From: an uncultured Pseudomonadota bacterium
Lineage (GTDB): Bacteria > Pseudomonadota > Gammaproteobacteria > Steroidobacterales > Steroidobacteraceae
Assembly (NCBI GenBank): GCA_963839685.1
Contig: CAWIVS010000002.1
Coordinates: forward strand, 358,859 to 422,858
DNA: 64,000 nucleotides
Direction of reading: 5' to 3'
Shown: positions 1,334 through 64,000 of the stretch, piece by piece
Layout: each line of letters opens with the position of its first letter
How positions within the stretch are numbered: the first letter of the stretch is position 1
The notes under the pieces: model-generated
Told to the model about the DNA's origin: nothing
Seen by the model: only the letters and a program-made list of their open reading frames with translations
Databases searched by the model: none
Translations under genes and position numbers: made by a program

Positions 1334-1337
1334 CCGG

Positions 1338-2852: not shown

Positions 2853-2886
2853 GAAGGCGCGAGTGTAACCCCTATACTGTGCGGCG

Positions 2887-3530: not shown

Positions 3531-3937
3531 AAGAACTTGTCGAGAAAGGTGGCCGTCGAGTCGCTGATGCCGACGATCTTGTTAGTGGCCTGGCGATAGT
3601 ATTTGAAATTCAGCTCAGTCTCGGGCCGCCCATCCTTCCAGTTGGAGAATGGTTTGAGCTCAGCCCGTCCCAGGCGCCGCCTGGCAAGCGCGGTCCGCCG
3701 AACCTCGATGCTCACCCGCGGCGTCTGGCGCTCGACGCTGCGTTTCTTCGCGGTGGCCGCGGCTGCCGTGACCACGCCCCTGGCGATCAGCCCCGGCCCG
3801 CCCTCATTTTCGCTGGCGAAGATATAGATGGTGTCGCCCGGCGCGATGTGCTTGCCGCCGTACATGGTCTTCTGCGCCCGGAAAGTGAATTTCCTGGCCT
3901 TGGTATCAGCGATGTGTGCCTTGATGGCAAAAAACAT
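3527..3937 (-). CDS. hypothetical protein
   Basis: 136-aa ORF with normal composition, convergent with the preceding gene. No motif recognised. Confidence 0.45.
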   Translation of the reverse strand: MFFAIKAHIADTKARKFTFRAQKTMYGGKHIAPGDTIYIFASENEGGPGLIARGVVTAAAATAKKRSVERQTPRVSIEVRRTALARRRLGRAELKPFSNWKDGRPETELNFKYYRQATNKIVGISDSTATFLDKFF

Positions 3938-3955
3938 TCGACCACTGCCTCACAC

Positions 3956-4763
3956 CTATCTGCGACCCCACGCCACGAAGTGGCCGTTGCGAAAACCGGG
4001 TTTGCCGTACGTGAAAGGCTCACCCTCGAGACCCGTGACGCTGCCGCCCGCCGCCAGCAACACGGCATGTCCGGCGGCCGTGTCCCACTCCATGGTGGTG
4101 CCAAGGCGCGGGTAGATATCCGCCTCGCCCGCCGCCACCAGGCAGAACTTGAGCGATGAGCCGATGGAGCGGAATTCCTTCACCGGGTAGCCGGCGAGGA
4201 AGGTATCGGTCTCGGGCGTGCGATGCGAGCGCGACGCCACCGCGGTCAGTCCTTCGGCCGGCGGCGTGCGCGCCCTGATGGGGTTGCCCATCGAGGGCAT
4301 GGTGCCGTCGGGGTCGGCGTCGATTTGGCCCGCCTTCCCGGAACGCACATCGCCCCAGAACAACTCGCGTCTGCGCGGGCGCGAACACCACGCCCATCAC
4401 CGGCTTGCCGGCTTCGACCAGCGCGATGTTCACCGTGAACTCATCGCGGCGGCTGATGAATTCCTTGGTGCCATCGAGCGGATCGACGAGGAAGAACCGA
4501 TCGGTGGATCCCAGCACGGCCGGCACGTGCCCGGCGGCGACGGCTTCTTCGGCCACCACCGGGATCCCCGGCGCGATCGCCGCGAGATCCGCGAGGATGA
4601 TCTTTTCCGCCGCTTCGTCCGCCGCCGTCACCGGCGAGGTGTCGGCCTTGTCGCGCACCACGAACTCCGTGGCATACACGGCCATGATCGCGCCACCGGC
4701 GCGCTGCGCGGTGTAGATCACGGATTGCAACAGGGCGCTGGATTCAGGCACGGCGGGCCTCAT
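3956..4763 (-). CDS. cysQ: 3'(2'),5'-bisphosphate nucleotidase CysQ (inositol monophosphatase family), one frame interruption
   Basis: The N-terminal part is in ORF 4020..4763 (TSPVTAADEAAE, FLVDPLDGTKEF). The C-terminal part is in ORF 3956..4363 (SSLKFCLVAAGEADIYPRLGTTMEWDTAAGHAVL). The frame change is near 4365. Confidence 0.85.

Positions 4764-6934: not shown

Positions 6935-6945
<11 letters not shown>
4744..6945 (-). CDS. malQ: 4-alpha-glucanotransferase (amylomaltase, GH77)
   Basis: Intact 733-aa ORF with GH77 motifs (LRLDHVMALFRQWWVP, VVGEDLGVVPDEIR, TTHDLPTLHGWW). The start overlaps the end of glgX by 11 nt. Confidence 0.9.
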
Positions 6946-9001
<2,056 letters not shown>

Positions 9002-9005
<4 letters not shown>

Positions 9006-11226: not shown

Positions 11227-11227
11227 T

Positions 11228-11358
11228 AAATGGGGACATCCCCATTTCCAGGAAATGGGGACAGCCCTATTTTCGAGTCATGCATGTTAAAGGATCGCTT
11301 CATATCGTCTGCAAGATGGGATGTCCCCATTTGCTAGGAAATAGGGAGTGTCCCCATT
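11228..11358. repeat. four short hairpin-forming repeats (AAATGGGGACA / TGTCCCCATTT) filling the glgP-glgB spacer
   Basis: Copies at 11228-11247 (9-bp arms, perfect), 11253-11272, 11313-11332 and 11339-11358 (imperfect). The two left copies share AAATGGGGACA. The two right copies share its reverse complement TGTCCCCATT. Confidence 0.75.
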
Positions 11359-13829
11359 ACATCACCGAGCGGATGTTCCAGATCTTGTCGGCATACTCGC
11401 GCACGCTGCGGTCGCTCGAGAACGGGCCCATGCCGACGGTGTTCAGCACCGCGCGGCGGCTCCACTCCTCGGGCTGTCGATACAACGCGTCGGCCCGATC
11501 CTGCGCCTCGCAATACGCCTTGAAATCCGCGAGCACCAGGAACGGCTCGCCATCGGAGGTCAGCCGGTCCACCACGTGCCGCGCGGACTCATTGTTGCCG
11601 CGCCCGAACGCGCCATTGCGAATCATCTCCAGCGTGTTGGCGAGCTCCGGATTGGCCGCGACGTATTCACGCGGCCGATAACCCGTGATGCGCAGCGCCG
11701 ACGCCTCATCGGCGTTCATCCCGAAGATGAAGATGTTCTCCGCGCCCACCGAGTCGCGAATCTCGATGTTCGCGCCGTCCAGCGTGCCAATGGTCAGCGC
11801 GCCATTCAGCGCCAGCTTCATGTTGCCCGTACCCGATGCCTCCATGCCCGCCGTCGAAATCTGCTCCGACAAGTCCGCCGCCGGCATGATGAGCTGCGCC
11901 AGCGACACATCGTAATCCGGCAGGAACACGCACTTGAGCTTGGTGAGCGTCTGCGGATCCTGGTTGATCGTGGTCGACACATTATTAATGAGTCGGATGA
12001 TGGCCTTCGCCATGACATAACCCGGCGCCGCCTTGCCGGCAAACATCACCGTGCGCGGCACCCAGTGTTGATCCGGGTTTGCCTTGATGCGGTTGTAGCG
12101 CGTGATCACGTACAGAATGTTCAGCAGCTGCCGCTTGTACTCGTGGATACGCTTCACCTGCACGTCGAACAGCGAGTCCACGCTGACATCGATGCCGGTG
12201 CGCCGATCCACTTCCACGGCCAACGCGATCTTGTTGGCGCGCTTGATCTCGCGGAACAGCGCGCGAAATGACGGGTCATCCGCCGCCCAGCGCAGCCGCT
12301 CGATTTCCTCGAGATCATTCTCCCACGCCGAACCCAGCCGCTCCGTCAGCAAACGCGACAGCCGCGGGTTCGATTGCTTCAACCAGCGCCGCACCGTGAT
12401 GCCGTTGGTCACATTGATGAAACGATCCGGAAACATCTGCGCGAAACCCGAGAAGATCGTCTTCTTCATCAGCTCCGAGTGCAGCTTCGCGACGCCGTTC
12501 ACCTTGTGAGACGCCACCACCGCCAGGTGCGACATGCGCACGCGCCGGCCGATACGACTCGCCGATGATCGACAACGTGGTCTTCGCCGCACCATCACCC
12601 TTGAAGCGCTTCTCCACTTCCAGCAGAAACTCTTCGTTGATGCGATAGATGATCTCGAGGTGGCGTGGCAGGAAGCGTTCAAAGAACTGCACCGGCCAGG
12701 TCTCCAGCGCCTCGGGCAACAGCGTGTGATTCGTATAGCCAAACACCCGGCGGCAGATGTTCCAGGCATCGACCCACGGCAGGTCGTATTGATCCAGCAG
12801 CAGGCGCATCAGCTCCGGGATCGCCAGCGTCGGATGCGTATCATTCATTTGAATCGCGAGCGCGGTGGGCAATTCCTCCAGCGTGCGCTCTTCCGCCAGG
12901 TGCGTGGCGAGGATGTCCTGGATGCTGGCGCTCACAAAGAAATACTGCTGCTTGAAGCGCAGCTCCTTGCCCTGCGGCGTCGAATCATCCGGATACAGCA
13001 CGCGCGACAGATTCTTGGCATCGACCTGGTCTTCCACCGCGGCCGAGTAGTTGCCCGCGTTGAAATCCTCGATGTGAAACGGCTGCAGCGCGCGGCCCGA
13101 CCACAGGCGCAGATGATTCACCGTCGTTGAACGATTGCCGGGCACCAGCTGGTCGAAGCCCACCGCGAGAATGTCCTGCGTCTCCACCCAGCGCGAGCGT
13201 GTCGCGCCAGCCACGTCGTGTGCCGTCAACACCCGTCCACCGAAACGCACGATGTAGCGCGCGTCCGAGCGTGGCGTCTCCCACACGTTGTGCAGGCGCA
13301 GCCAGGTCGATGCCGATTCACGCTGCGCGCCATCCGTATCTATGGATTGCGTGAAGATGCCGTAGTCGTAGCGAATGCCGTAACCGGTCGCGGGGTACTG
13401 CAGCGTCGCCAGCGAATCGAGAAAACAGGCCGCGAGTCGACCCAGGCCACCATTGCCCAGCCCCGGATCGACTTCCAGCGCAATGACCGAATCGAAATCG
13501 TGTCCCATGCTGGCAACGGCCGCCCGCGCCTCGTCGATCAGCTCCCCGTCGAGACTGGAGAGCGCATTCAACAGCGAACGGCCCGGCAGGAATTCCAGCG
13601 ACAGGTAACAAAGTCGTTTGACTCTTGCCCGCGCGACACGCCGTTGTGTCGCGAGCCATCGCGCCGACAGGTCCTCGCGCACTCCCAGCGACAAGGCGTC
13701 ATAAATGTCGCGTGGAGTCGCCGTATCGGGCTCTTTGCCGAGACTGCGCGTAAGGCGGTCGTATATCACCGCGCGCAGCGACCCGCGCCTCAGGATCGAT
13801 CCAGCCGTCAACGTCGGCTCATTCAGCAC
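11357..13829 (-). CDS. glgP: glycogen/maltodextrin phosphorylase, one frame interruption
   Basis: The N-terminal 504-aa ORF (12315..13829) and the C-terminal ORF (11357..12769) together give a GT35 phosphorylase. It has the PLP-lysine region EASGTGNMKLALNGALTIGTLDGANIEI. The frame change is near 12550. Confidence 0.9.
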
Positions 13830-43037: not shown

Positions 43038-44734
43038 ATGCGAGAAGGAGGCTTGCAGCCCCGGCCTCAAGAGTACGACGCGATTGTCGTCGGTTCGGGA
43101 GCATCCGGCGGGTGGGCCGCCAAGCGCATGAGCGAAGCCGGAATGCGCGTCGCGCTCGTCTGCGCCGGCCGTCCGCTGAAGGACGGCGACTACCGCGAGC
43201 ACGTGCAGCCCTACGAGCTCAAGTACCAGGCGCGCGCCAACGATCTCATCCGGCGTACGCGGCCCGTGCAGAAGGACTGCTACGCCTGCACGGAATACAA
43301 CGAAAGCTGGTTCTGCAACGACATCGACGAGCCGTACACCACCGCACAGGGCAAGCCGTTTTCGTGGCAAGGCCGCATGCGCGTCACCGGCGGGCGCACC
43401 AACGTCTGGGGCCGCCACAGCTACCGCTTCTCGCAGCAGGATCTGAAGGGTTATTCCTTCGACGGCGCCGGCGCCGACTGGCCGCTCGACTACAAGGACC
43501 TCGTTCAAGTACTACGAGCTGGTCGAGGACTATGTCGGCATCTCCGGCATGGTCGAGAACAACCCTGAGCTGCCCGACAGCAAGTTCCAGCCGTCGATGC
43601 CGCTCACCTGCGTCGAGAACAAGGTCCGCTCCGCCATCAAGACGAAGTTCGGCCGCACCCTGACGATGGGACGGTTGGCCAACCTCACCAAGCCGATCAA
43701 CGGACGCGCGCCCTGCCACTACTGCGGCCCCTGCGAGCGCGGCTGCATCACGCATTCCTATTTCAACTCCGCGTTCACCACCGTCGCCGACGCGCTCAAG
43801 ACCGGCAATTGCACGCACATCCCGAACGCCATGGTCTACCAGGTGATGATGGACAAGGCGACCAACAAGGCGCGCGGCGTCACCTACGTGGATCGCATCA
43901 CGCGCGAGACGCGCGAGATCCGCGCCAAGACCGTGGTGCTGTGCGCGCAGGCGCTCGAGTCGACGCGCATCCTGCTCAATTCGGCGAAGGATGGTCTCGG
44001 CAATTCGAGCGGCACCCTCGGCGAATACCTGATGGACCACATGTGGGTCGCCGGCGGCGCCAGCTGGCGAGTTCCCCGACATGCCGGGCAAGCCGAGCCT
44101 GAACACCGCCCACCGACCCGGCGGGCCGTACGTGATCCGCTTCCGCAACACCGCGAAGGGCGAGCGCCACAAGGACTTCCTGCGCGGCTACGGTTTTCAG
44201 GGCGGCAGCGCAGCTCAACTTCGCGTATGGGCGCGCCGGGCTTTGGCCAGGCCTACAAGGATGCCGTCAAGAACGGCCAGTGGACGATGGAGTCTCGTCG
44301 GCTTCGGCGAGTGCCTGCCCTACAAGCACAATCGCGTCACGTTGAACAAGAACGTCACCGACGTCTTCGGCATCCCCGTGCTGCACATCGACGTTGGCGT
44401 GGGGCGAGAACGAGAAGGAGATGATCCGCGACATGGCGGTGAGCGCCGGCGAGATGCTCGAGGCGTCAGGCGCGAAGAACGTGCAGCACCTTCGCGCATG
44501 AGGATCGCATCCCGGGCTACGGCATCCACGAGATGGGCTCGGCGCGCATGGGCAGCGACCCGAAGCAGTCGGTGCTGAACCAGTTCCAGCAGTCGCACGA
44601 CGTGAAGAATCTGTTCGTGATGGATGCGGCGGGTTTTCCGTCGGGGGGTGTCAGAACCCGACGCTGACGATCATGGCGATGGCGGTGAGGTCGACGGACT
44701 ATCTGATGGAGCAGTTCAAGAAGCGCAATTTGTA
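43038..44734 (+). CDS. GMC family oxidoreductase, many frame interruptions
   Basis: The FAD motif [23 protein letters not shown] is at the N-terminus. The body hops between all three frames (ORFs 42951..43568, 43549..44424, 44081..44578 and others). By my reading there are at least 7 changes. It ends ...[24 protein letters not shown]. Confidence 0.75.
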
Positions 44735-45402: not shown

Positions 45403-45858
45403 CTAAGGTTTCTTTTCGGGAACGAGTTCAGGGCGATGGGCCGCTCGCCATGCGATAACCTCGTCGATCAATCGTTTTGCCTCGGCGATGCAAGCGTCGG
45501 CGGTTGAGTCGTCGACGTCATCGCCCGTGTAGTCAGAGACGTTACGTTGACGACGCAAGGCATCGAGCACCACTACGCGCTTCGACGACAGGCCTAAGGT
45601 CAGTGGCGTGCTTTGCAGCACTGTCATGTGATGTCCAGGCCGATTGGTGTCGGGACGATATCCATGCATCAGCAGCGCCGCGAGTGCGCTTTGCATGATC
45701 GCCTTATAGGCGGCATCGAAGCGCGTTTCCGGGCTTATCTCTTTGACGCGGGCGTCTCGCAAATTGCGCTCGGCGGCGGTGAGCAGCCGCTCGATCTCGT
45801 GACGATCACTCGGATGCTCTTTAAGTTGGCCGATCTTGAGTAAGTTTTGCAAACTCAC
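45403..45858 (-). CDS. HEPN-like domain protein (putative toxin/partner of the upstream nucleotidyltransferase)
   Basis: 151-aa helical ORF with RRQRNVSDYTGD, an R..RN...(H/Y) HEPN-type motif. It overlaps the nucleotidyltransferase gene end by 38 nt. Confidence 0.55.
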   Translation of the reverse strand: MSLQNLLKIGQLKEHPSDRHEIERLLTAAERNLRDARVKEISPETRFDAAYKAIMQSALAALLMHGYRPDTNRPGHHMTVLQSTPLTLGLSSKRVVVLDALRRQRNVSDYTGDDVDDSTADACIAEAKRLIDEVIAWRAAHRPELVPEKKP

Positions 45859-46450
45859 TGGCTTCTCCGATCAAAAGAACCTTCGGCTCTCTTGTCACGC
45901 GCGAGATGAAGCGATCGCCATGGCGGAGCTTGCTCAAGAAGGCCGCCTTGGTCATTACCACCGGGTTCACCTCACGGCCGAGCCTCCGTGTTCCAGCGTG
46001 GCCTGCTTCGACCACAGCGGCGAACGACGCCGACCCCACCACCATCAGGTCAATGTCACTGCCTGGGCGCGCCTTGCCCTCTGCCACGGAACCAAAGACA
46101 AACGCGAAATTGATTTTTTTCGAGAGAGGCTCGAGAAGGTCGCGCAAAACATCGGCGAGACCCGCCGTCTTGCGGAAGATGCCGGCCAACTCTTCATAGA
46201 TTGGGCAGGCGCGGTCGGCTTGGTAGCGAACCTGGTTACCTGACGTCGAACGCGAGAGCAAACCGGCTTCAGTTAAAGACTTGAGTTCCCGATGCAGCGA
46301 ACCGGCGGGCACACCCGTTATCCGCTCAACCTCCCGCACGTAGAAACTTTCGTCTGGCCGGAGCAGCAGTAACCCCAGGATCTGCCGGCGATACGCGCCA
46401 AACAGGACCTCGACCAGCTGAGTAGATGGCTGTGGGCGGCTTGTTCTCAT
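45821..46450 (-). CDS. wHTH + nucleotidyltransferase (MNT-like) protein
   Basis: The start is taken at MRTSRPQ (46450). The N-terminal wHTH is YVREVERITGVPAGSLHRELKSLTEAGLL. The NTase motif is FGSVAEGKARPGSDIDLMVV. Confidence 0.7.
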   Translation of the reverse strand: MRTSRPQPSTQLVEVLFGAYRRQILGLLLLRPDESFYVREVERITGVPAGSLHRELKSLTEAGLLSRSTSGNQVRYQADRACPIYEELAGIFRKTAGLADVLRDLLEPLSKKINFAFVFGSVAEGKARPGSDIDLMVVGSASFAAVVEAGHAGTRRLGREVNPVVMTKAAFLSKLRHGDRFISRVTREPKVLLIGEASEFAKLTQDRPT

Positions 46451-46480
46451 GTTGAGAACTATTGTTGCATAATTGAGAAC
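46443..46480. promoter_or_regulatory. candidate operator: GTTCTCA-TGT-TGAGAAC plus a third TTGAGAAC half-site
   Basis: The inverted repeat at 46443-46459 spans the proposed start codon of the wHTH-NTase gene. A direct repeat of TTGAGAAC lies at 46473-46480. Confidence 0.35.
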
Positions 46481-46670
46481 ACCAGCGCCACTGCTTGTTT
46501 CAATGTTTTCCGAATGGAGTTGCGACATACGGGGCGACAATGCGCGCCGTTTGTTCCAAGCCCAACCGGCAAATCGGGTGCAGGTAGACCGAAACCCGCT
46601 GGCATTCGCGGCGGCGTATTGAAGTCGAAAATCGCGACTTCAAGCCAGTAAGTCGTTGATGAGCAAAGGC

Positions 46671-48340: not shown

Positions 48341-48593
48341 GCAGCGTATCTCTATTGAGCCGCCTTTCGCTGCTGGTTCTCTTTTTCCGGACTCGGCGGG
48401 TCTTTCACCGGCGCCTGCTCTTCCGGCTTCCCGGACGGCGGCGGATCGTTGACCGGCAACTCACCGTGCTCGGTCGTCGTGAGCTCGACCGGCGGGATCG
48501 GGTTGGGAATGCTTTCCATGGTGGGGATGGTACGAGCTGGCACGGCTCTGTTTGATCGGCGCACGGCCCTTTGAACTGTAGGTTCATCCCGCT
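48341..48593 (-). repeat. ~250-bp repeat, copy A (small ORF plus conserved upstream leader)
   Basis: It aligns without gaps in the ORF part to 52926..53178 and 56209..56462. It contains the GAAC-N16-CGTG element at 48562-48586 (minus strand). Confidence 0.85.
48352..48519 (-). CDS. small Pro-rich protein, copy A
   Basis: MESIPNPIPPVELTTTEHGELPVNDPPPSGKPEEQAPVKDPPSPEKENQQRKAAQ. The three copies differ only by substitutions downstream of this ATG. An indel occurs upstream of it, which supports this start. No obvious SD. It lies 31 nt upstream of yihY copy 2. Confidence 0.5.
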   Translation of the reverse strand: MESIPNPIPPVELTTTEHGELPVNDPPPSGKPEEQAPVKDPPSPEKENQQRKAAQ

Positions 48594-52925: not shown

Positions 52926-53178
52926 GCAGCGTATCTCTATTGAGGCGCCTTCCGCTTCTCGTGCTCTTTCTCCGGACTCGGCGGGTCTTTCACCGGCGCC
53001 TGCTCGTCCGGCTTCCCGGACGGCGGCGGATCATTGACCGGCAGCTCGCCGTGCTCGGTGCCCGTCAGCTCGACGGGTGATATCAGGTTGGGAATGTTTT
53101 CCATGGCGGGGATGGTACGAGCTTGCACGGCTCTGCTTGATCGGATCACGGCACCTTGAGCTGTAGGTTCATCCCGCT
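52926..53178 (-). repeat. ~250-bp repeat, copy B
   Basis: Near-identical to copy C. The similarity continues to ~53230 into a 3' piece of the GNAT gene (RDLGSRMGET). The GAAC-N16-CGTG element is at 53147-53171. Confidence 0.85.
52937..53104 (-). CDS. small Pro-rich protein, copy B
   Basis: MENIPNLISPVELTGTEHGELPVNDPPPSGKPDEQAPVKDPPSPEKEHEKRKAPQ. Confidence 0.5.
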   Translation of the reverse strand: MENIPNLISPVELTGTEHGELPVNDPPPSGKPDEQAPVKDPPSPEKEHEKRKAPQ

Positions 53179-53220
53179 ACGGTCGTGGCCGTCTCGCCCA
53201 TGCGCGATCCGAGATCGCGC

Positions 53221-53283: not shown

Positions 53284-55970
53284 TTACGGCGTCGCAGTCC
53301 TTAGCGGCGCGGCAGTCTGCTTGACGCTCCTGACGACCACGTTGTCCACGGCCACGCCGCAGATTGGCCCGCCGCCCACATCGAGGCAGGTGGCCGAACC
53401 ATCTTGCGTGTACTCGAAGCGCAGCTGCGCGGTGGTTCCCGCCATGCCCGGCAGCCGCAGACGCACGTGCTGGAAGCGGCCCGAATCTCCCGCCCACACC
53501 GACATGTCCTGGAAGTAGTTCGGATTGCTACTACGCGGCAGGTGCTTCGGGAAATGCTTGAAGCCATCAGTCCTGAACTCGTCGTCGAAGGCTTCGACCA
53601 GCACCGATCGCAGGGTGTGGCCCTCGGTCAGGTCCGCGATGCGCAGCGTGAGGCCGTCGTACGCGGTGATGTTGAAGTTCGGATCGAACTCCGTGTCCGT
53701 GCAGACGTCGAACTCCACCGTCACGTAGTCCGCGTCCGCAGGAATCGTGATCGGCGGACTGAACAGCCGCTCCCAGCGTGTCGGGTCACCCGTGCCGTTG
53801 TCGTTGGCGTTCTGGTGGAACGCCGCATTGCTCAAACCGCAAAATGTGTTGCTGGTGATCCACTGGACGGTATTGAGTCCGCCCCCGTGCACGGGCATCC
53901 AGCCCGTGGGCAACGCCCCGACCGGCGTGGTGTTGAAGTACTCCCTGAATATCAATGTCGACACCGGCGTGCCGGTGAACAGTGTGTGACGCAAGGTACC
54001 CGCGTCCCGGGCATCACCACCGAACATGCCAGTGGTCCGCAGGGTGAGCCTGATCGGCGTGCCCGCATCGAAGTCTGGTGACAATCTCAGCAGGTAATTT
54101 CTCGAACTGCCCTCGGTGTCGCCGGGATCGATGCGCCCATAAGAGACCCTACCGCTCGCAATACCGTCACCCCCGGCGTCTGTGATGTCAGCATCGCCGT
54201 CACATTACGTGCCGCCGCCGCCGAATTCGGATTGGTGGTGTAGTTAGTAAGCGGCAGGGTGACTCGGACCGTCTCGCCCGGATCGAGGAAGCCATTGTGA
54301 TTGCTGATGTCTCCATCGACAGCCGTCACGCCATTGACATCGATGGCCAGCGGCAGGGAATTTATGCCCCGCATCGAGAACTGCCCGGAGCGCTTGAACT
54401 CGATATTCGGCACCGTCAATCGCAGGTCGGGCTGCCCATCCACGAAGCCCCCTGGCGGCCGCGACGCCACCGCATACGCCGCGTACAGCACGCCGCCTTG
54501 CGACACCGCCTGGTTGTAGTCGCCCAGGTTCGGCTGGCCCGTGTCGTTTCCCCAACCGGCGTGGAACGGCATCCTCGTCAGCGGCACCGGCGCCGACCAA
54601 TGCGCACCCGCATCGTCGGAGAAGGTGTAGCTCACCTGCGTGAGGTCGCCCGATTTGTCGATGCCCTGGTCGTAATAGAACACGCCCACCCGACCGGTGA
54701 GAGTATCCACCGAGACCCACGGGAACCATTGCGCCCGGTCATCACCGGGCGCCGCGTTGATCTCCACCGGCGCGGAGAGCGACCTGCCGCCGTCCGTGCT
54801 CTTCTGGAATACGATGTCTGCGCCGTCCCCGCTGTTGTTGTTGGCGTACACCAGGTAGACCGTGCCGCGGTGCGGGCCGCGCGAATTGTCCACCGCCAGC
54901 GACGGCGAAGTATTCACGCGGTCATTGCCCAGCACCTGGTCCATGGTGAAGAACTCGGCCGTCTCGAGCGGTACGCCCCAGCTCACGCCATTGTTGGCCG
55001 AGCGTGCCAGCGCAATCGTATTGCCGTAGCCGCCGAACGTTCCCGGGAACGGAAAGCGACGCCACGCCACATACGCCCGCGCGCTGCCCGCCGCGAAGCG
55101 CGGCACCGACGACTGGCCGTCCGACGGTCTCGCCCCCACCACGACGCTCGAAGACCAGGTCGGCACCGCGGCCGTCTTGGCGTTGTCCGACCAGGTGGTG
55201 CGAATCTCAACGCCACCCGGCGCCACCGGCGTGAAATTCGACCAGCTCATAAGGACGCGGCCCGTGTCGGGATCCACGTCGATGAATTCCTTGTCAGCCG
55301 CATCCACCGGGAAACCCTCTTCGATGAGGCCGTTCGGATTGGTCGCCGAGGTCACCTCGAACGGCCCCCGCCAGGTCTTGCCGCAGTCGGTCGAGCGATG
55401 CACACCCATGGTCTGCACGTTCGCTTCCGGGCCGGCTTTCTTGACCAGGATGGACGAGTAGAGGAACACGCAGTCGCCGAGGTATTTCACGTCCGGATCG
55501 CCGAACACCTGCGGGTACCGGGTCGTGCCGATGGTTTCATTACCCGGGGAAGGCAGTTGCCCGCCATCCACGAAGGTCGTGCCGCCGTCCTCGGAATACA
55601 TGTAGCCCGACACCGAGATCGGATTTTTGTCGAACCCGCGCGTGTCGTTGAAGCCGATGACGATGTGCTGACCGCCCTCATCGACTGCGATCGACAGCTC
55701 GGCCTGTCCGCCCGGGGCGCGTTCTTCCCTGTCGCCCTGCTGGGGGCATCTGGGCTGGTTCAGGCAGTCGTCGCCGGCATCCGCGCCTTGGGTGCGCGCT
55801 TCCGGCCCGCCCCGGCCGGTGGTTTGTTGCTTGAGTTTCGCCACGGCCGCGGCCGCGCGCTGTCCCATGGCGGACATCTTGTCGGTTTTCGATTGCGGTC
55901 CGGTATTTGCGGCATTGGCCGCGCTGATGCAGAGCATCAAGGTGATGCAAACGAATGTGAGCGCTTTCAT
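53284..55970 (-). CDS. large secreted BNR/Asp-box (sialidase-like beta-propeller) protein with C-terminal beta-rich domains, one frame interruption
   Basis: GGGAGG RBS, ATG at 55970, signal peptide MKALTFVCITLMLCISAANA. Asp-box repeats are SEDGGTTF, STDCGKTW, SANNGVSW, STDGGRSL and SDDAGAHW. The frame change is near 54090-54130, joining ORFs 54087..56204 and 53284..54084. Confidence 0.7.
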
Positions 55971-56208
55971 CGCAAGCCTCCCTGGCGTGATGAATATTCG
56001 CTGTCGCGAAATGTTTGTAAGGAGGCGGATTCTTCTCCCGAGTGATGCCAGTTGCAATTGGTAGTTAGGCGACGTTCCCGTCAGACAAAGGGAGCGGATG
56101 GCGAAGTAGGAAAACGCTGATAGACAGGAATTCGCGGGCGGAACGCCGGCATCGAATTTACCGATGCACCACCGCAATCGACGATCAACACGCAGCGACA
56201 ACATCGGC

Positions 56209-56462
56209 GCAGGTTATCTCTATTGAGGCGCCTTCCGCTTCTCGTGCTCTTTCTCCGGACTCGGCGGGTCTTTCACCGGCGCCTGCTCGTCCGGCTTCCC
56301 GGACGGCGGCGGATCATTGACCGGCAGCTCGCCGTGCTCGGTGCCCGTCAGCTCGACGGGCGGTATCGGGTTGGGAATGTTTTCCATGGCGGGGATGGTA
56401 CGAGCCTGGCACGGCTCTGCTTGATCGGACCACGGCACCTTGGACTGTAGGGTTATCCCGCT
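56209..56462 (-). repeat. ~250-bp repeat, copy C
   Basis: See copies A and B. The -35-like element is degenerate here (TAACC), at 56431-56456. Confidence 0.85.
56220..56387 (-). CDS. small Pro-rich protein, copy C
   Basis: MENIPNPIPPVELTGTEHGELPVNDPPPSGKPDEQAPVKDPPSPEKEHEKRKAPQ. It lies in frame with, and downstream of, the GNAT ORF. Confidence 0.45.
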   Translation of the reverse strand: MENIPNPIPPVELTGTEHGELPVNDPPPSGKPDEQAPVKDPPSPEKEHEKRKAPQ

Positions 56463-56987
56463 ACGGTTAGCGTGCGGCTCTGCGCGCGGAGAGCCACATG
56501 GCCGCAGCAACCAGCGGTCGTTGTGTTCGTGGCCCGTCTCGCCCATGCGCGATCCGAGGTCGCGAAAGCCATTCCGGTGATAGAACTCCAGCGCCGTCTG
56601 CATTTGCGAGATCGTCTCCAGGTAGCAGCGCACGTAGAGGAATTGCCGTGCCGCCTGGAGGCAGCGTTCCAGTAGTGCATTGCCGAAGCCGCGGCCACGC
56701 GCGTCGCGTCGCAGGTACATGCGCTGCAGCTCGCAGGTGAGCGGATCCGCGCCCGCGAGCGGCGCCACCCCTGCCCCACCCACCACCTCGCCATCGAGCA
56801 GCGCGACGCTGTAGAGCGCACGCTGTCGTTGGTAGGTGTCGTAGAGCGCCAGGTCCGCCGGCTCCAGCAGCGATTCGACTCGGGTTCCGAGACCGTATTC
56901 CGCGCGCGCATCGCGGATGATGCCGAGCATCGCCGGCACGTCGCTGCGTTCCAGCGGGCGGATAGTCAGTCGAGCCTGGTTCAACAT
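56220..56987 (-). CDS. GNAT family N-acetyltransferase; the ORF has no stop before running through repeat copy C
   Basis: The GNAT core runs from 56987 to ~56470 (ELQRMYLRRDARGRGFGNALLERC, ALEFYHRNGF). The open frame continues to 56220, giving a 255-aa ORF. Confidence 0.75.
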   Translation of the reverse strand: MLNQARLTIRPLERSDVPAMLGIIRDARAEYGLGTRVESLLEPADLALYDTYQRQRALYSVALLDGEVVGGAGVAPLAGADPLTCELQRMYLRRDARGRGFGNALLERCLQAARQFLYVRCYLETISQMQTALEFYHRNGFRDLGSRMGETGHEHNDRWLLRPCGSPRAEPHANRSGITLQSKVPWSDQAEPCQARTIPAMENIPNPIPPVELTGTEHGELPVNDPPPSGKPDEQAPVKDPPSPEKEHEKRKAPQ

Positions 56988-57020
56988 TGCGCATCCCTTG
57001 GCTCCCGCACGGATGCGCCC

Positions 57021-57045
57021 AAAAAAACGCCTCCGCGAGGGAGGC
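57021..57045 (-). terminator. Rho-independent terminator (bidirectional shape) at the island boundary
   Basis: GCCTCC (57029-34) pairs with GGAGGC (57040-45). A7 lies on the left, giving a U7 tail on the minus strand. TTTCT lies on the right. Confidence 0.75.
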
Positions 57046-57351
57046 TTTCTGGTTGAGACGTTACGTCAGTTTCGTGCGCTCAATCGCCGGCCTCCTGGTT
57101 ACGCAGGCCGGAGTAATAGCTGTGGAGGAATTGAGGCACGGGGCGACGGTACTGGCTTTGAGACTGGGATGTCAATGACGTGGAAGAAGTCGGTTCGTGC
57201 CGTTGTCTATTTGGCTGCCTCTTTCTTCTTGTGATCTCTTCTTGTGACCTGGATCGCCGGCGTCGCGTTCTTGCTCTCTCCAGACCCAGGTACGAACTCG
57301 ATCCTCTGTCGCCAGCTTCCCTAAGCCTTGATTTGCATCACGTCACTCAAT

Positions 57352-57720
57352 CTAGTCGTCACTCTTGAAACGTGGAAGCCTTACGTCACCAAGCAAGCGG
57401 GTTCCACTTTCGCCTTTGGTTGCAGTTCGGCGCGCTGGACGCCTAGTCTCAGTTCCTGCGACCACATCAATTGCGACGCAACGACCCAGCTTCACAGCTT
57501 GAACGAGCTCAGCATCCGTCGAACAATAGAAGACTTCGCGTGAACAGTCATTGCAGAACCTCACGCTGGATCTTCTGGTAGGGAGCAAATTTTCCCACTT
57601 CTTGTCACATCGGAATGCGAATTGGCAGTTTCGGATCTTGTTTGTTGACACTGATGTCAAATACCTGTATGAGCAGACTAGCCTACTCGATCTCGAGCAA
57701 GAGATGGTCGCACTGGCCAT
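57352..57720 (-). CDS. small Cys-rich (zinc-finger-like) hypothetical protein
   Basis: It contains CQFAFRCDKKWENLLPTRRSSVRFCNDCSREVFYCSTDAELVQAVKLGRCVAI. The real start may be the GTG near 57640, just after a TTGACATCAGTGTCAA palindrome. It is the first low-GC gene, 103 nt downstream of zorD. Confidence 0.4.
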   Translation of the reverse strand: MASATISCSRSSRLVCSYRYLTSVSTNKIRNCQFAFRCDKKWENLLPTRRSSVRFCNDCSREVFYCSTDAELVQAVKLGRCVAIDVVAGTETRRPARRTATKGESGTRLLGDVRLPRFKSDD

Positions 57721-57822
57721 CTTCTTGTCTACAGAAGAGACAGTCAGGAGAGTCCACTCGCATACGGACTTGCCTACCTAAATCTCTAGCGCCCAGATGC
57801 AGATCAAGTGCGACTGTAGGCG

Positions 57823-60800
57823 CTAGGCTTTCGACAATTGGCCTGCATACAGAACTCGCTCGACATCTTCAAGAGTGATCTTGTAACGCTGATGCATTTC
57901 GGCAAGCCGAGCTCGATCTACAATTTCAACCTTATTGTCCTCAGCGCTTTGACGTGCGCCTCTGTTGAAGAATTGAGCCGCAACACAGACTCGCGAGAAG
58001 GTTATCGCCGGGGTACTGTAGCTGATAAGCAGCATGCCCGGTCACTACGTCCTTTATCGCGTCCCAACTCAACTCACGATCCGAACGTTGGGAAGTCTTG
58101 CATTGAATGAGCTCGCCAACGCTTCCATCGATAGCTACGACATCCACGCCTTGATCACCAACTAGTGGGGTCAAGATGACATTGGCGCACCCGCGGCGCG
58201 CCCACAAGACCGCTGTGTAGGCCTCAAAGTGCCGCGGCTGCATGCTTAGAACATCTTCGAATGTTAGCTCGCGTGGCTCTAGGTTCACACTTCCCGAAGG
58301 CGCCACTTTCTTCAAGTCAAAGTCGCCGGAGCCCAAGTCTCCAGACCCGTTGAGCATATCCTCTGCAAGTTCTCTCTTGATCCTGAGTAGCTCATCAAGT
58401 CGCACGTCAAACGTTTCAAAATCAGATGCGCACACGATGGGGCAGTAGACGTGCACGTCCTTCTCCTGACCAATTCGATACGCACGATCCGTTGCCTGAT
58501 CTTCTTTCGCTGGGTTCCAAGTGCGGGTGTAGTGAATGACGTGGTTGGCGGCCTGAATATTCACGCCGAAGCCAACCGCAAGCGGCGACAGGATAATGGC
58601 GCCGAATCCAGGACGCTCCTGGAACTGACGGATGCGTTTCTGCCGACTCGTGTCACTCGCCGATGAAGCCGACGTATCGCCATTGATGATGTCCGCCGCA
58701 TATCCAAGGTCTTCCTGAATGTAATGCCGGAGCAGGAGCTGCATTTCCTTGAACTCACAAAAAATGAGCGCCTTCTCGCCTCCCGCTTTGATTGTCTTCA
58801 AGGTACGGAGCAGCCAATCCAGCTTCGGCGCCTTCGAACGATAGATCGAAAGTGGTTCAGCACGGAATCCGGAAAGCCCGTGCGGCTGCGGATCCGTGCA
58901 GATCATGACGCAAGTATTGGAGAAGACCCAGTGCATTCTTGAAAGGCGTTGCAGACTGCGAATCGAACCGCTGTCCGTACTGTGTAATTGCCTGTACGTA
59001 AAGCGCCCGTTGGACATCGCTCAATGAGAGTGTCTTGCACTCTTCGTTGAGTCTCTTTTCCTTCAGTTCCTTTGCAACGTCCTTCTTCAATCGACGCAGA
59101 GTCTGTGGCTCCGTTAGAGCCCGAAGTGCCTCTACGCTCGTCCTTTGTTCGTCCGTTCTTGCTTCAATTGGGCGTCGATACTGTTGACCGAATTCGTTTA
59201 GCGCTCCCAACAACCCTGGCTGAATGAAGTCAAACAGACACCACAGATCGGTCAAGGTGTTCTCGACCGGAGTGCCGGTGCACGCCACACGGAATCTGGC
59301 GTTCTGCTTCTTTGCCGCGCGTGTCACTAGCGCATTCGGATTCTTGACCTTTTGCGCCTCATCGCAAATCAGAATCGACCACTTCTCCGCTGCAAACGAA
59401 AACTCTAGATCGCGCAGCGTTTCATATGTGGTGAGGACTACGTTTGCCTTCCCGCGCCAGCCTGGTCGCAAAAACTTGACCAGGCCTTCCTGTCGGAGCT
59501 GTTCATCAATTTCATGCTTAGGTACGCGGAATCTGTCGAGCGTGGGCCCATAGACTTCAAGAATCCTCAGTGCATCGGCCTTGAAGAACTTGTGGGCCTC
59601 CTCTCGCCAGTTCTCGAGAAGCGCTACGGGCGCCACGACAAGCGCCGGCAACATATTCGGGTCTCGCTCCTGCGCCCATGCAATCAGCGTCAAGAAGCTG
59701 CAGCGTCTTTCCGAGCCCCATGTCGTCCGCGAGAAGCGCCCCTCGGCATTCCCCCGGGTGAAAGATTAAAAGATGTTGAAGCCAAGCCGACGCCATCAAT
59801 CTGATGCTGCATGAGTTGTGCGTCGGTCTTCAGTCCGTGTGGCAATGAACAGTCTTCAGTTGCGCATCAAGCGTGGCTCTCCGCTTTTCCAAATAATCGA
59901 CCGAAACAACATTCGGCTTGAGCAGGAGTCCGATTCGCGTCAATGGTTTGCGCGGCTCATCTGCGTCGAGGACTGAGCGTTCCAACTTCTCCGCCTCGAG
60001 TCTTGCCTTTTCAAAGCCAGTCAGCACCGGTTCCAGTTCATGGATTGGCAGGGGATCTGGCATCCCAGGCACGCGAATCGAAGTCTCACCAGCTTCCTTC
60101 GCCGCTCGCAGTAGTTCTTTGATCCTTGCGATTTCTTCTGGCGTGAGATGGATGTAACGAGGTTCGCCGCCAGGCTGCTCAGGCGGCAATGCAATGATGT
60201 TGACGAGGTTGTCAGGGAACCATCCACCGCTATCATCCTTCCTGGCGATATACGGAGAGAGGTACGGCTTCTCTTCACCGATCCCCTGAATCCGCTCGGA
60301 ATAGCTCGAAAGATCGTAGATCGCTTCGAGTGCGATTCCCATTAAAGGGCGTGGAGAATCTAACTGAGCTTTTTCGGCGACTGCCCGCTCAAGTGTTTGT
60401 AGCTCTTGCTCGGTGTTGCCAAGCAATTCAAATTCGAATTCTTGCCAGGCACAGAGTTGGCGCCCGACCGCAATGCTCGCCCTCACTTGCTCCGCGAACG
60501 CATGCGACTTCTTCAAATGCAAGCGGTTGCCGAACACACTGGCGAGTTCGGCCCTGCGCCGCTTTCTACTTGAAGTCCGACTGCAATCGGAGCACCGCTC
60601 TGATTTCGATCTACATAGGCGGTGAAAGTGTCAAAAGTGAGTCCGACGCGTTCGCGCTCAGCCTCAAACTCATCTGGATCTATGACTTCGCTCGCCGCCT
60701 CCCCTAGAGCTGAAACGGATTCATGACGAATGCTTCGGCACGCGCTCCTGCCATCCGTCGGCCAGGAAAACGCTTGAGCTGCTCGAGCACAGTCTTTACT

Positions 60801-61715
60801 TCAGGCTTCACGACCACCTGCACGACACCATCCGCGGTGGGGACATCGTAACGATCGCGCACTGCACTGCTTGCATCGAACTTAGCAAGCCATTCTTCGG
60901 GGCAATCCTCGAATCCGGGGATCACCTCGACTACGCGCGAACGGCCTTGTCCGTCCTGCCTCAAGCCGATCTTCAGTCGATCAGGCGACAGGACAACCGT
61001 CCTGAAGAGGAAATCATCGAGACGCGCGCCGGCTGTCAATGCCAAAGTGCGAATTTCACCCCACGTAATGCGCTGACTTCGTTCATCACGCTCTGAGTCC
61101 TCTCGCCGTGAAAACGCTCCGATTCTCTGCAATAGATTCCAAGTGGCAGGCGATAGCAGACCGAACTCGACCGGAGACGGTCACGGTAGCTCCGCTTGTG
61201 GTCACCCCGTGCACCGCACGATTGTTACCATCGATCCATCCGGAGATCGCCACCGCAAATGTACGATCCGTCAGTGAACCTCTGGCTAACAAGTTGCGGC
61301 GCCAATTCGACTTGTGGGGGTATTCCCATCCCCATAAGCGCGGATTTTGCGGTTGGGTCAGCGGAGAGTTGATAGATCGCAGCCCAGGGCACAAACCAGC
61401 CTTCGCCCTGCTCAACTGCGTACCCAGCGTCCGCCCATTGAACAAGCACTGAATCAGCAATCGGATTGGCAGCAGGCGTGCCGGTGCCCTGCGTCGAATA
61501 GCCGATTCCGACTTCGTTGATTTCAACTCGCCAAATTGTCGACGCCCCAGCGGCTTCTCGCACAGTGGCATTCATTAGGGCCATTCCTTCCGCCACCAAA
61601 ACTTCTTTTGGCTGCTATACGCAAAGCCCCAAGCTTTGAGCTGGTTAGCTACGGCCCCAGCATCCATGGGATACAAAACTGCAAGATTCCCGCCCTTAAA
61701 GAATTGTCGTGCCAT
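57823..61715 (-). CDS. zorD: ZorD-like SNF2 helicase with C-terminal Mrr-like nuclease module, at least 10 frame interruptions
   Basis: SNF2 motifs: LMQHQIDGV, LLADDMGLGKT, ILICDEAQKVKN, TGTPVEN, ALIFCEF, QATDRAYRIGQ. The C-terminal GDQGVDVVAIDG...ELIQCKTS matches D-(D/E)xK Mrr_cat. The ~600-aa N-terminal region has no recognised motif. Pieces are ORFs 61225..61599, 60704..61132, 59830..60537, 59557..59799, 58857..59693, 57941..59017 and 57823..58035, plus unlisted short frames. Confidence 0.75.
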
Positions 61716-61742
61716 GTGAGGCGATACAAGTCGCAGAACCCC

Positions 61743-63201
61743 TCAAGTGTTCGGCGGCCAAATGGTGCTGTCGAGCTTCGAAACAACCGGTGGCACTAAT
61801 TGCTCGGGCGCGTTGCGATGAGATGCGCTGTGGCGCCTTAGCGAACTAGCAAAGCTCTTCTCCCAATTTTCATAGCTCTTGTCCAAGTGCAACAAACGCT
61901 CAAGGTTCCTACCTGACCGAAGCCCGGCATCGCCAGTACTACCGCTCACCACTCCTCTCAGTTCAAAAGGAAGGAGCCGACTCGATACAAGAAACAGGCA
62001 TGCCCCGTCATGCCGAACTCCACCGCGACAACATTGGCAATTTTCATGATGAACGCGTTGTTCGCCGGAGAACCAGCATCTTTGAGCCCAAGAGACGTTC
62101 GCCCATTTCACGTCGCATCGCCTTCGCATCCGGGTCGCGAGAATCTCTAATCGTATTTCCAAGTGCGAAATACATATCGTCAATTTGCTCGTAATACTGT
62201 TCCCAGAATCTCACCCGTCGGGGATCCGTCTTGCGATCTTCCGAAAGCAATTCAAAGAACGTCCGGATGGCTTTGAGCTTGAACCACCCAATCACCAACT
62301 TGCGTGCTTCCGGCGAAACGTTCGCCCATTTCTCTTGCCGTGACTCCAGCCATGGGTTTCCCCAACAACTGACCGCGCGGTCCCGAAGCTCCGGGTGAAG
62401 CTTCGGTTCGGCGCACCGGGCGTACGATCGAGAATTAGCTTGAGCCCCTTGTCCTCGAGCAGGATGTGCCCCTCGAGGACTGATAGAAGCGGATCCACCA
62501 GCTTGCAGAAAGTTTCATCCTGTTCCTGAGCTGCAGCGTGAATCTGCGCCAGCACCATTCTTTGCATCAACCAGGCATCGTCGCCTACATCCAAGCGTGA
62601 GCGAATGAAGTCGATGTCTTCTTTCTGGCCTCGCAGTACCTGGGCGGCGTACCGCTCTACAGGGTTCTCGGTAAGCAAGTTTGGATGCTGAGTAATGCAT
62701 TCGACCCATTCAGGTTGTTGCCTTCAGCTTCGATTGAACGTCGTCGATCATGCAGGTATGACCGAAGGCGAGCCCAGTTGCTGCGTCCTACATCGCAGGT
62801 GTCGTGATGTTCACCGTCATATGCGATGTACGTGTGCAAGAGGCCGCGAAAGCAGCGCCGGAATTGCCGGGGTCAGGCTGAAAAACGTCAACCAGATACA
62901 AGAGGTGCGGAAATGAGTCGCTCTCTTCGATGAGAGGCGCCTCACTCCGACTAAATCTTTCGGCCGCGCCAAAGCACACAGCTCGGGCGATCGGAAGGGT
63001 TGGCAGTTCGCGATGTGCTCTGAAGTACATCACCGCCTCGCGCAGACGATCACCTGGCGGGGGGCTACCCGCACCCGCTCCACCAAGATGGCGCTTCAAC
63101 TTTTCAAGTTCCTCATTAAGCAAAGGCGGAACTGGTTCCTGCTCGACTGTGACATCGAACGCCCGGTCGATCGCGGCTTTGAGGTGTGCGATTGGTTCCA
63201 T
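61743..63201 (-). CDS. zorC: ZorC-like (EH-signature domain) protein, at least 5 frame interruptions
   Basis: ATG at 63201, 2 nt after the zorB stop. Pieces are ORFs 62788..63219, 62657..62839, 62292..62678, 62044..62298 and 61743..62183. The C-terminal region has RFWEQYYEQIDDMYFALG and NAFIMKIANVVAVEFGMTGHACFLY. The assignment rests mainly on position and size. Confidence 0.6.
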
Positions 63202-63203
63202 GG

Positions 63204-63923
63204 CTACTGCAGCGCGCACATGCCAAAGTTGCCAGCCGGCACCTCAACCAAGTGGGCTTTTGGCTCCCCTGCCATATAAAGCTCGAGGCGCAATTCCACT
63301 CGCCTGGATTCCGCCGCGGTGAGTCTTGCATCGTTGAAAGAGTAGCCGCCCACGACAAATAGATCGCGTATCTCTGCGAGTTGTCTGTCGGAGAGCGGCG
63401 CTTCCCCATCAAGCGGAGGAGCGAACAGAGCGCATAGAACTGCCTGGCTTCGCTGCAGACTCAGGTTGAGGTTATACAGATAGCTGCCGGATTGATCCGC
63501 AAAGCCTTCCACGACAACTCGCTTGAGGATTGCCTACCTGCCTCATGTGAGCCACGATTAGCAGTTCTGGCACGAACTCTCGCAGCAGCTTGCTTGCTCC
63601 GAACGAAGCCGGTAGACATTCTTGTCGAATCTGGCGCGATCCTGGAAGTCGACGACCCGCCGGTTCTCGATCGACGCGAATTCCAGAAAATTTTGCCGTG
63701 GCTTTTTCGACCTGATCCAGGAATTCATCAATTGCGCGCTGATGGGCGATCTTCTCGGCTCCTGTTCAGTGACAGTCTTCGTAACTGCGAGCAACGCCAC
63801 GCTCATGACAACCAAGAACAGCACCATCAGTGCCGTCATCAAGTCAGCGTAGGAAATCCAGAACGGCTTTTCAGCTTCGTCCCGAGAACGCCCTCGGGCT
63901 TTCGTCAACGACAAGAACCCCAT
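63204..63923 (-). CDS. zorB: ZorB (MotB-like stator subunit with OmpA-type peptidoglycan-binding domain), two frame interruptions
   Basis: The N-terminus is RSRDEAEKPFWISYADLMTALMVLFLVVM (ORF 63558..63923). The C-terminus is VVVEGFADQSGSYLYNLNLSLQRSQAV ... AESRRVELRLE (ORF 63204..63512). Two slips lie between 63510 and 63590. Confidence 0.85.
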
Positions 63924-63926
63924 TGC

Positions 63927-64000
63927 TTATCTCGCGCGACGAGCAGCCTGCGGCAAAACGCCACCCAAGGCGCTTTCCAATTCGACGATCGCCTCGCGAA
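63927..64000 (-). CDS. 3' end of an upstream ORF (expected zorA), partial
   Basis: 24 codons (...REAIVELESALGGVLPQAARRAR*) end 3 nt before the zorB ATG. The identity cannot be shown from this fragment. It is inferred only from Zorya gene order. Confidence 0.3.
   Translation of the reverse strand, partial: REAIVELESALGGVLPQAARRAR

Follow-up and report, generated by a model that had tools for sequence, protein, structure and literature searches.

In the 64,000-nt stretch of DNA analysed here, hereafter the window, positions 57823 to 64000 of the minus strand are, judged from their sequence, a type I Zorya locus comprising the 3' end of zorA followed by zorB, zorC and zorD. We favour, with a probability of roughly 85%, the reading that this operon sits on a strain-variable, low-G+C island and that the 22 frame breaks found in it are consensus errors, so that the genes themselves are probably intact. 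When frame-corrected proteins were searched, the best matches in PADLOC, Pfam and NCBIfam, as well as the matches in the PDB, all indicated type I Zorya (Table 1).

Table 1. Features of the Zorya island and its flank, with positions in the window.
Feature	Coordinates	Strand	Basis
Conserved host segment, 5' part of GNAT acetyltransferase gene and upstream region	56503..57192		97.8% identity to L083
Island left end	57193..57822		51.7% GC; L083 homology stops at 57192
Cysteine-rich ORF (122 aa) in the island, downstream of zorD	57352..57720	-	ORF listing
zorD, SNF2 helicase with C-terminal Mrr-like nuclease domain, ~1255 aa corrected	57823..61596	-	PADLOC ZorD1, Pfam
zorC, EH-signature DNA-binding protein, ~543 aa corrected	61575..63201	-	PADLOC ZorC1, EH_Signature
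zorB, MotB-like stator subunit, ~240 aa corrected	63204..63923	-	PADLOC ZorB1, MotB_plug, OmpA
zorA 3' end (last 23 codons and TAA stop)	63927..64000	-	Remainder beyond window edge

Frame-corrected ZorB scored 312 bits against PADLOC ZorB1 (PDLC00611, model positions 7–238 of 240), had 'type I Zorya ZorB1' as its best NCBIfam match, and contained the Pfam domains MotB_plug (30.3 bits, cut-off 24) and OmpA (27.3 bits, cut-off 27.2). E. coli ZorB (8qyd) was matched at E=1.6e-46, as against only ~1e-5 for MotB-related chains, and ZorB D27 aligns with D26, the essential proton-binding aspartate of the E. coli protein. ZorC scored 520 bits against PADLOC ZorC1 and 170 bits against EH_Signature (cut-off 27.5), and its match to E. 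coli ZorC (8r68) covers residues 45–418 (E=5.7e-29). Its E396 aligns with E. coli ZorC E400; E396, H440 and W448 are invariant in all 69 of the 69 family sequences, and H440 was assigned as the probable equivalent of E. coli H443 by position and family-wide invariance rather than by direct alignment. ZorD, in which Pfam recognises SNF2-rel_dom, Helicase_C and Mrr_cat, scored 1416 bits against PADLOC ZorD1 (model positions 16–1096 of 1101). In its alignment to E. coli ZorD (8qy7; E=3e-171), both the DEAQ box (CDEAQK) and the equivalent of E651 are kept. The 23-residue piece of ZorA is too short for an HMM match; by tblastn it is 70% identical to residues 616–638 of ZorA from L002, and its sequence REAIVELESALGGVLPQAARRAR aligns with the ZorA C-termini RLREVIAELESALGGAMPRVATRGR of L001 and MLREAIGELEAVLGGITPRAAGRAR of L002. 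L001, from Steroidobacter agaridevorans SA29-B, and L002, from the MAG PE_dung25, are the most closely related Zorya I loci found.

An earlier note on this DNA had described homologues of ZorB, ZorC and ZorD in three closely spaced genes of the minus strand, a description borne out here, and every motif that it quoted is found in the sequence. The genes are co-linear in the order zorA-zorB-zorC-zorD with tight junctions, a layout that agrees with L001 and L002. As had been proposed, the upstream ORF, which has a ZorA-like C-terminus, stops 3 nt before zorB (TAA at 63927–63929, zorB ATG at 63923), and L001 has the identical 3-nt gap; zorB and zorC are separated by 2 nt. The zorC and zorD boundaries differ from those given earlier because the genes are frameshifted many times as deposited: in place of a 27-nt gap the two genes overlap by 1–22 nt, the stop at 61743 proposed as the end of zorC is out of frame, and corrected zorC (63201–61575) encodes ~543 rather than ~485 residues. 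Similarly, zorD was put at ~1300 aa and comes to ~1255 aa once corrected, with its start at 61596, or at one of the in-frame ATG codons at 61584 and 61575, and a TAG stop at 57823–57825. From zorB start to zorD stop the window spans 6101 nt, compared with 6089–6101 nt in the intact loci L001 and L002, whose proteins (ZorB 240 aa, ZorC 543–546 aa, ZorD 1248 aa) agree in size with those of the window. Two findings had been named in advance as counting against Zorya, namely the absence of a MotA-like gene directly upstream of zorB, and HMM searches that placed zorB with flagellar MotB or Pal and zorC outside the EH_Signature family. As far as the window allows, neither was seen: zorB groups with ZorB1, and zorC lies inside EH_Signature.

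The G+C content of the island is 52.7–56.6% per kb, and 55.1% over zorBCD, compared with 63.6% for positions 1–57000; the claim that the block is lower in G+C than the host thus stands, while the range of 43–53% given for it was wrong. That the island was acquired is backed by an empty-site-type comparison with L083, from the same lineage, which has only window positions 56503–57192 in common and then carries a different low-GC defence cargo. This cargo is also shattered into short ORFs, with the methylase and helicase models each split across ORFs, an observation that favours assembly errors over decay for the frame breaks described below. Within the conserved host segment, a hairpin with a T-run after it resembles a terminator (57029–57045, minus strand). 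The cysteine-rich ORF downstream of zorD had no PADLOC or Pfam match and no tblastn match in 80 related Zorya loci, and may not be a real gene. Searches of the window for tRNA genes, tmRNA genes and Rfam families found nothing, and hence no integration site linked to a tRNA. The best explanation for these data is a strain-variable, lower-G+C island inserted beside the GNAT acetyltransferase gene of an uncultured bacterium, probably a member of the Gammaproteobacteria with affinity to Steroidobacteraceae, at a site that looks like a defence-island hotspot given the methylase and helicase cargo that the relative bears there.

The deposited sequence departs from the open frames expected of a Zorya locus in that all three complete genes are interrupted, zorB being listed in two pieces, zorC in four and zorD in at least six. 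Frameshift-aware alignment to intact homologues identified 22 single-nucleotide indels: five in zorB (near 63757, 63660, 63589, 63551 and 63531), seven in zorC (near 62873, 62718, 62425, 62093, 61980, 61757 and 61698) and ten in zorD (near 61281, 61157, 60711, 60539, 60502, 59860, 59785, 59691, 58904 and 58003). Frame-corrected proteins were mentioned in the earlier note, but not how extensive this damage is. The frameshifts were not made by excising the window, since the broken ORFs are already on record as gene products of the 424,970-bp public contig (P0001 and P0242). Neither programmed frameshifting nor phase variation can credibly account for 22 sites without repeats. A shared sequence motif and a homopolymer context were both looked for at the indel sites and neither was found. 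Classic Nanopore consensus errors do fall in homopolymers (PMC9262707), which tells against the error reading, as does a switch in indel direction within the island: deletions outnumber insertions 10 to 2 in zorB plus zorC, whereas insertions outnumber deletions 8 to 2 in zorD (p=0.008).

Apart from these indels, the genes have the features of intact family members. Across 2022 codons of zorBCD there are no in-frame stops, no larger deletions or truncations and no changes in gene length; the probability of finding no nonsense codon is 0.012 at a substitution:indel ratio of 5 to 1, and 0.00014 at 10 to 1. Near-invariant family columns are kept at 277 of 281 positions, where intact members have a leave-one-out mean of 98.3–98.6%. 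All of the experimentally essential residues that were checked, as taken from work on E. coli Zorya I (PMC11946911), are present: ZorB D27, ZorC E396 and, by position, H440, and the DEAQ box and E651 equivalent of ZorD.

The integrity of host genes was assessed with a Viterbi tracker based on GC3 phase and codon usage and later by reference-based alignments. ORF length alone was dropped as a control, as long ORFs survive frameshifts in 64%-GC DNA; the ORF at 6840–9338, for example, fuses the C-terminus of glgB with glgX. Over 6.4 kb of glgP, glgB and glgX, we compared the window with the corresponding genes in L081 and L082, two assemblies of the same lineage with ~98% and ~89% nucleotide identity to it, respectively. 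Every coding indel was private to one assembly (3–4 in each of the three), with breaks at differing positions where the other assemblies stay in frame. One inserted base aside, the glgP of the window shows 99% identity to an intact 823-aa homologue, and intact 823-aa GlgP proteins occur in the same 90%-identity cluster. A GMC oxidoreductase gene of host-typical G+C (43064–44732) contains seven one-nucleotide indels and no stops, a density of 4.2 per kb that is comparable to the 3.6 per kb of the island (p=0.66). The island density is, in turn, ~8-fold that of the checkable host DNA (0.46 per kb, p=3e-8), an excess that we can explain only by assuming low local read support. Among all 38 mapped lesions there was not one nonsense codon.

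Were the frameshifts real, the Zorya operon would be a dead, decaying pseudogene cluster, an inactivated defence system in the course of being lost. Defence systems are costly and frequently lost, and the excess of lesions over checked host DNA, as well as their position outside homopolymers, are in keeping with such decay; moreover, no second copy of the island was found in the searched collections (the next ZorD relative is 77% identical), so its indels are not demonstrable as private to this assembly. However, indels that arise naturally in bacteria are found preferentially in repeats and are skewed towards deletions, whose lengths vary. No such pattern is evident here, where all 22 lesions are exactly 1 nt and the junctions between genes are unchanged. 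The retention of conserved columns and catalytic residues, the demonstrably private lesions of the same type in housekeeping genes, and the equal lesion density of a gene with host-typical G+C also stand against decay, and we consider real pseudogenisation unlikely and a dying operon improbable. It is very improbable that the 22 indels are real and that clean ±1 frameshifts accumulated without accompanying substitutions; if true, this would point to a process that generates indels in a targeted or hyper-local manner and so silences a defence island that is costly to keep, and that process must also act on the GMC oxidoreductase patch at 44.0–44.7 kb. Pseudogenisation of the whole organism, following for example a recent lifestyle shift, would make the breaks in host and Zorya genes alike real, and frameshifts do occur in glgP, glgB, glgX, the GMC oxidoreductase gene and other genes across the window. 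Yet the related assemblies break the same genes at other positions, intact GlgP exists in the same cluster, nonsense codons are lacking, and a few private singletons per assembly are what noise rather than shared ancestry would leave, making genome-wide decay highly improbable.

The possibility that the locus is not Zorya, and represents instead another SNF2-helicase defence system (Dpd with DpdE, or DISARM with DrmD) or a flagellar-stator paralogue beside a helicase, was also considered. ZorD does match PADLOC DpdE at 808 bits and, more weakly, DrmD models at 82 bits or less, and although NF041788 (ZorB1), NF041789 (ZorC) and NF041790 (ZorD) are the best NCBIfam matches, their scores of 215, 167 and 1042 fall below equivalog cut-offs of 400, 490 and 1500, respectively. 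The scores are probably low because the models derive from a limited range of sequences far from the present clade. We regard the equivalog cut-off as a stringent limit for annotation and not as something that defines the system biologically. ZorD1 outscores DpdE widely, no dpd or drm genes adjoin zorD, whose neighbours are instead zorB and zorC, and both of these Zorya-specific genes occur in the canonical order with a ZorA C-terminus upstream. Furthermore, each of the three proteins has its E. coli Zorya I counterpart of known structure as the top PDB match, 29 of the 33 related loci with a located zorB have an ORF of >300 codons ending a few nt upstream of it, and L001 and L002 show the complete four-ORF layout, leaving a non-Zorya identity extremely improbable.

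We thus return to consensus error: the 22 breaks most likely arose in the consensus of the deposited assembly and presumably cluster where its support is poor, and the Zorya operon is probably intact within a poorly resolved part of a noisy public assembly. The locus adds one more type I Zorya system, of the form whose ZorD bears an Mrr nuclease domain. Automated defence-system finders run on the deposited gene calls would see only fragments, and would miss the system or call it degraded, and a naive pseudogene analysis would falsely report its decay. It may be that noisy metagenome assemblies are resolved worst in strain-variable islands; if so, surveys of defence-system integrity require frameshift-aware searches.

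By homology to the E. coli system (PMC11946911), ZorA and ZorB would form an inner-membrane, proton-driven rotary motor of 5:2 stoichiometry, ZorA5B2. Perturbation of the cell envelope by a phage would lead ZorB to anchor this motor to peptidoglycan, whereupon the long cytoplasmic tail of ZorA, rotating, would recruit the DNA-binding ZorC and the SNF2 ATPase/nuclease ZorD, and these two may break down the DNA of the infecting phage locally, leaving the cell alive (PMC11946911).

The window operon shares its gene order with that E. coli system (8qyd for ZorAB, 8r68 for ZorC, 8qy7 for ZorD; PMC11946911). The ZorB plug/TM motif is near-identical (DEAEKPFWISYADLMTA), the proton-binding aspartate included, the E and H signature residues of ZorC are kept, and the SNF2 core of ZorD retains the DEAQ box and the ribose-contacting glutamate. 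Outside these motifs the sequences are distant, and the window genes are frameshifted as deposited. The ZorD described here also has an extra C-terminal Mrr_cat nuclease domain (residues 1115–1232); the matched chain 8qy7_A has 1080 residues and the alignment ends at its residue 1074, before the Mrr region, so this chain appears to be without that domain. The MotB_plug and the OmpA-like peptidoglycan-binding domain of ZorB recall the flagellar stator MotAB and other 5:2 ion-driven motors (ExbBD, TolQR), whose 5:2 architecture ZorB presumably shares, although its genomic partners are ZorC and ZorD and not flagellar genes. The frame-corrected ZorB, ZorC and ZorD share 77%, 56% and 68% identity, respectively, with those of L001. 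Both L001 and L002 consist of four intact ORFs, unlike the window, and their operon G+C of 57–59% is close to that of their own flanks, whereas the window operon lies ~8.5 points below its host; they have the same gene sizes and operon span, and their ZorD is of the same Mrr-containing, 1248-aa form.

An ORF listing of 54-64 kb showed no long ORF in the Zorya region and a staircase of short minus-strand ORFs: zorB falls into two pieces, the zorC region into four and the zorD region into six or more. Uncorrected, these fragments already match PADLOC ZorB1, ZorC1 and ZorD1 together with Pfam MotB_plug, EH_Signature and SNF2. GTDB representative genomes were scanned with the longest clean ZorD fragment, and the closest of the 80 loci returned were those of Steroidobacter agaridevorans (L001, 79%) and a Pseudomonadota MAG (L002, 77%). 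No second copy of this Zorya locus was found in other assemblies of the searched collections, where the next-best ZorD was 77% identical. When the L001 and L002 proteins were compared with the window by tblastn, all parts of ZorB, ZorC and ZorD were covered, with the frame shifting constantly. Using a purpose-written frameshift-aware protein-to-DNA aligner, we located 22 single-base indels across the 6.1 kb of zorBCD; codon-level differences were few and of the kind expected among homologues.

Features of the window, with frame breaks and family matches
Feature	Coordinates	Strand	1-nt indels	Identity to L001 after correction	Remarks
zorB	63923-63204	minus	5	77%	Corrected protein: PADLOC ZorB1 312 bits; Pfam MotB_plug and OmpA; NCBIfam ZorB1 215 (cut-off 400); PDB 8qyd E=1.6e-46
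zorC	63201-61575	minus	7	56%	Corrected protein: PADLOC ZorC1 520 bits; Pfam EH_Signature 170 bits; NCBIfam ZorC 167 (cut-off 490); PDB 8r68 E=5.7e-29
zorD	61596-57823	minus	10	68%	Corrected protein: PADLOC ZorD1 1416 bits; Pfam SNF2-rel_dom, Helicase_C and Mrr_cat; NCBIfam ZorD 1042 (cut-off 1500); PDB 8qy7 E=3e-171
Glycogen cluster glgP, glgB, glgX, malQ	4744-13829	minus			Window-private single-base insertions at 12553 (glgP), 9243 and 9102 (glgB 3' end) and 7379 (glgX)
ORF	6840-9338				Artefactual join of the glgB C-terminal domain and glgX
GMC-family oxidoreductase, ~560 aa	43064-44732	plus	7		Host gene
HEPN-domain protein	45403-45858	minus			18.8 bits, below the Pfam cut-off of 22
Nucleotidyltransferase with HTH domain	45821-46540	minus			Adjoins the HEPN gene
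BNR-repeat (sialidase-like) ORFs	53284-56204	minus			705-aa ORF, then 266-aa ORF in another frame
Dispersed repeat, ~60-95 nt	56409-56564; 53125-53219; 48537-48593				Three same-orientation copies, 86-97% identity
Terminator-like hairpin	57029-57045	minus			G+C-rich, followed by a T-run, resembling an intrinsic terminator; downstream of the island genes, in host DNA conserved upstream of GNAT

The identification of zorB-zorC-zorD as type I Zorya, made earlier from the sequence alone, is borne out by PADLOC, Pfam, NCBIfam top matches and PDB alike. For each of the three corrected proteins the top NCBIfam match is the type I Zorya equivalog, and none of the three reaches the strict equivalog cut-off. 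The probable end of zorA lies where it had been expected, just upstream of zorB: 23 codons there can be aligned to the C-terminal ends of ZorA in L001 and L002, and the gap to zorB is 3 nt in both the window and L001. The distance from the zorB start to the zorD stop, 6101 nt, is identical in L002. The zorC boundary has to be moved, as the stop at 61743 that the earlier note took for the end of zorC is out of frame; zorC really ends with the TAA at 61575-61577 and overlaps zorD, whose possible in-frame starts are 61596, 61584 and 61575.

Host genes of the window are broken as well. Glycogen phosphorylase lies in two frames, one ORF matching Pfam model positions 2-319 and a second one 321-713. 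GlgP homologues about 70% identical carry the name Steroidobacteraceae; as the closest Zorya is moreover that of a Steroidobacter, the host is probably related to Steroidobacteraceae. L081, a contig of another ENA assembly (ERZ25039504), is syntenic with window positions 1.3-23.7 kb at 97.9% identity, and a pairwise audit attributed eight frameshifting single-base indels to the window and four to L081. With a third assembly (L082, ERZ25039494) included, the indel at 9102, first credited to L081, proved to be the window's, for a window-private total of nine (8 insertions, 1 deletion). The coding indels of glgP, glgB and glgX are each private to one assembly (window 3, L081 3, L082 4), and the window glgP is 99% identical to an intact 823-aa GlgP of the same 90% cluster save for one inserted base. 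The glg breaks are consensus errors and not inherited mutations. The BNR-repeat ORF pair is probably also one gene split by an indel, since the coding signal changes frame near 54187. Two proteins found in a large protein collection, a 321-aa one (P0001) that is 100% identical to the broken ZorD C-terminal ORF and a 331-aa GlgP fragment (P0242), are exact window ORFs that share one 424,970-bp NCBI/ENA contig; the breaks are thus on public record.

Indels are far denser in the island than in 19.8 kb of checkable host DNA (3.6 vs 0.46 per kb, p=3e-8). The GMC oxidoreductase, whose G+C is host-typical, forms a second dense patch outside the island, with six of its seven indels inside 580 bp (44068-44645) and no in-frame stops; as its density (4.2 per kb) does not differ from that of the island (p=0.66), dense indel patches are no peculiarity of the Zorya genes. 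Two tests speak against the island genes being in genuine decay. The frameshift-aware alignment contains no in-frame stop codon in 2022 zorBCD codons; with ~4.0% of random substitutions yielding a stop, the chance of this under decay would be 0.012 at a substitution-to-indel ratio of 5:1 and 0.00014 at 10:1. Near-invariant family columns are also kept in 277 of 281 cases (ZorB 38/38, ZorC 35/35, ZorD 204/208), and intact family members retain a mean of 98.3-98.6% in a leave-one-out control.

Two caveats weigh against reading the breaks as errors. Homopolymer context was sought at the zorBCD indel sites and not found (as in CTT(G)ACG and CGT(C)ATG), and indel direction flips within the island: deletions prevail in zorB plus zorC (10, against 2 insertions), insertions in zorD (8, against 2 deletions; Fisher p=0.008). 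Assembly error nevertheless best explains the apparent pseudogenisation of the Zorya genes. The island is probably strain-variable and may have been supported by few reads in a noisy metagenome assembly of long-read type; in assemblies of this kind, indels that depend on coverage and break up gene calls have been described (PMC9262707; proovframe preprint 10.1101/2021.08.23.457338).

The low-GC island is real, with 52.7-56.6% G+C per kb from 57 kb onwards vs about 60-69% elsewhere (zorBCD 55.1% vs 63.6% for positions 1-57000); the 43-53% first noted was too extreme. A contig of a further assembly (L083, ERZ25039531) has only 56503-57192 in common with the window, at 97.8% identity, namely the 5' part of a GNAT gene with the sequence upstream of it. 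This puts the left edge of the island at ~57193; the right edge lies beyond the window. At the equivalent site L083 carries a different island of 51-55% GC, whose genes are likewise split over several short ORFs, which suggests a defence hotspot with alternative cargos. Positions 1-9796 of this contig (contig_121244) encode a cytosine DNA methylase (DruM2/type II MTase-like), a type II helicase-domain protein and a DUF3427 protein. One copy of the dispersed repeat falls within the 3' part of the window's 255-aa GNAT ORF, near 56503, where L083 homology ends; as the true GNAT is ~178 aa in relatives, this ORF would have a divergent or extended C-terminus. The HEPN/nucleotidyltransferase pair (45403-46540) looks like a HEPN/MNT toxin-antitoxin module and sits inside a lower-G+C patch of its own (57-59%).

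Residues essential in the E. coli type I system (EcZorI) were taken from PMC11946911 and include ZorB D26, ZorC E400 and H443, and ZorD D730/E731 and E651. In direct alignment, window ZorB D27, ZorC E396 and the ZorD DEAQ box are conserved opposite D26, E400 and D730/E731, and the equivalent of ZorD E651 is present. H443 falls outside the region aligned to window ZorC; by position, H440 is its likely equivalent, and E396 and H440 are both invariant in 69 of 69 family sequences. Judged by sequence, the window proteins carry the domains and key residues of a type I Zorya. By homology to EcZorI (PMC11946911; PMC11890865), ZorA5B2 would form a proton-driven 5:2 motor, which ZorB would fix to peptidoglycan once the envelope is disturbed by a phage. 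By rotating, the ZorA tail would recruit the DNA-binding ZorC and the ATP-dependent nuclease ZorD, which would degrade phage DNA locally, the cell not being aborted. The system is of an already known type, encoded in L001 and L002 by four intact ORFs (ZorA 638-669 aa, ZorB 240, ZorC 543-546 and ZorD 1248).
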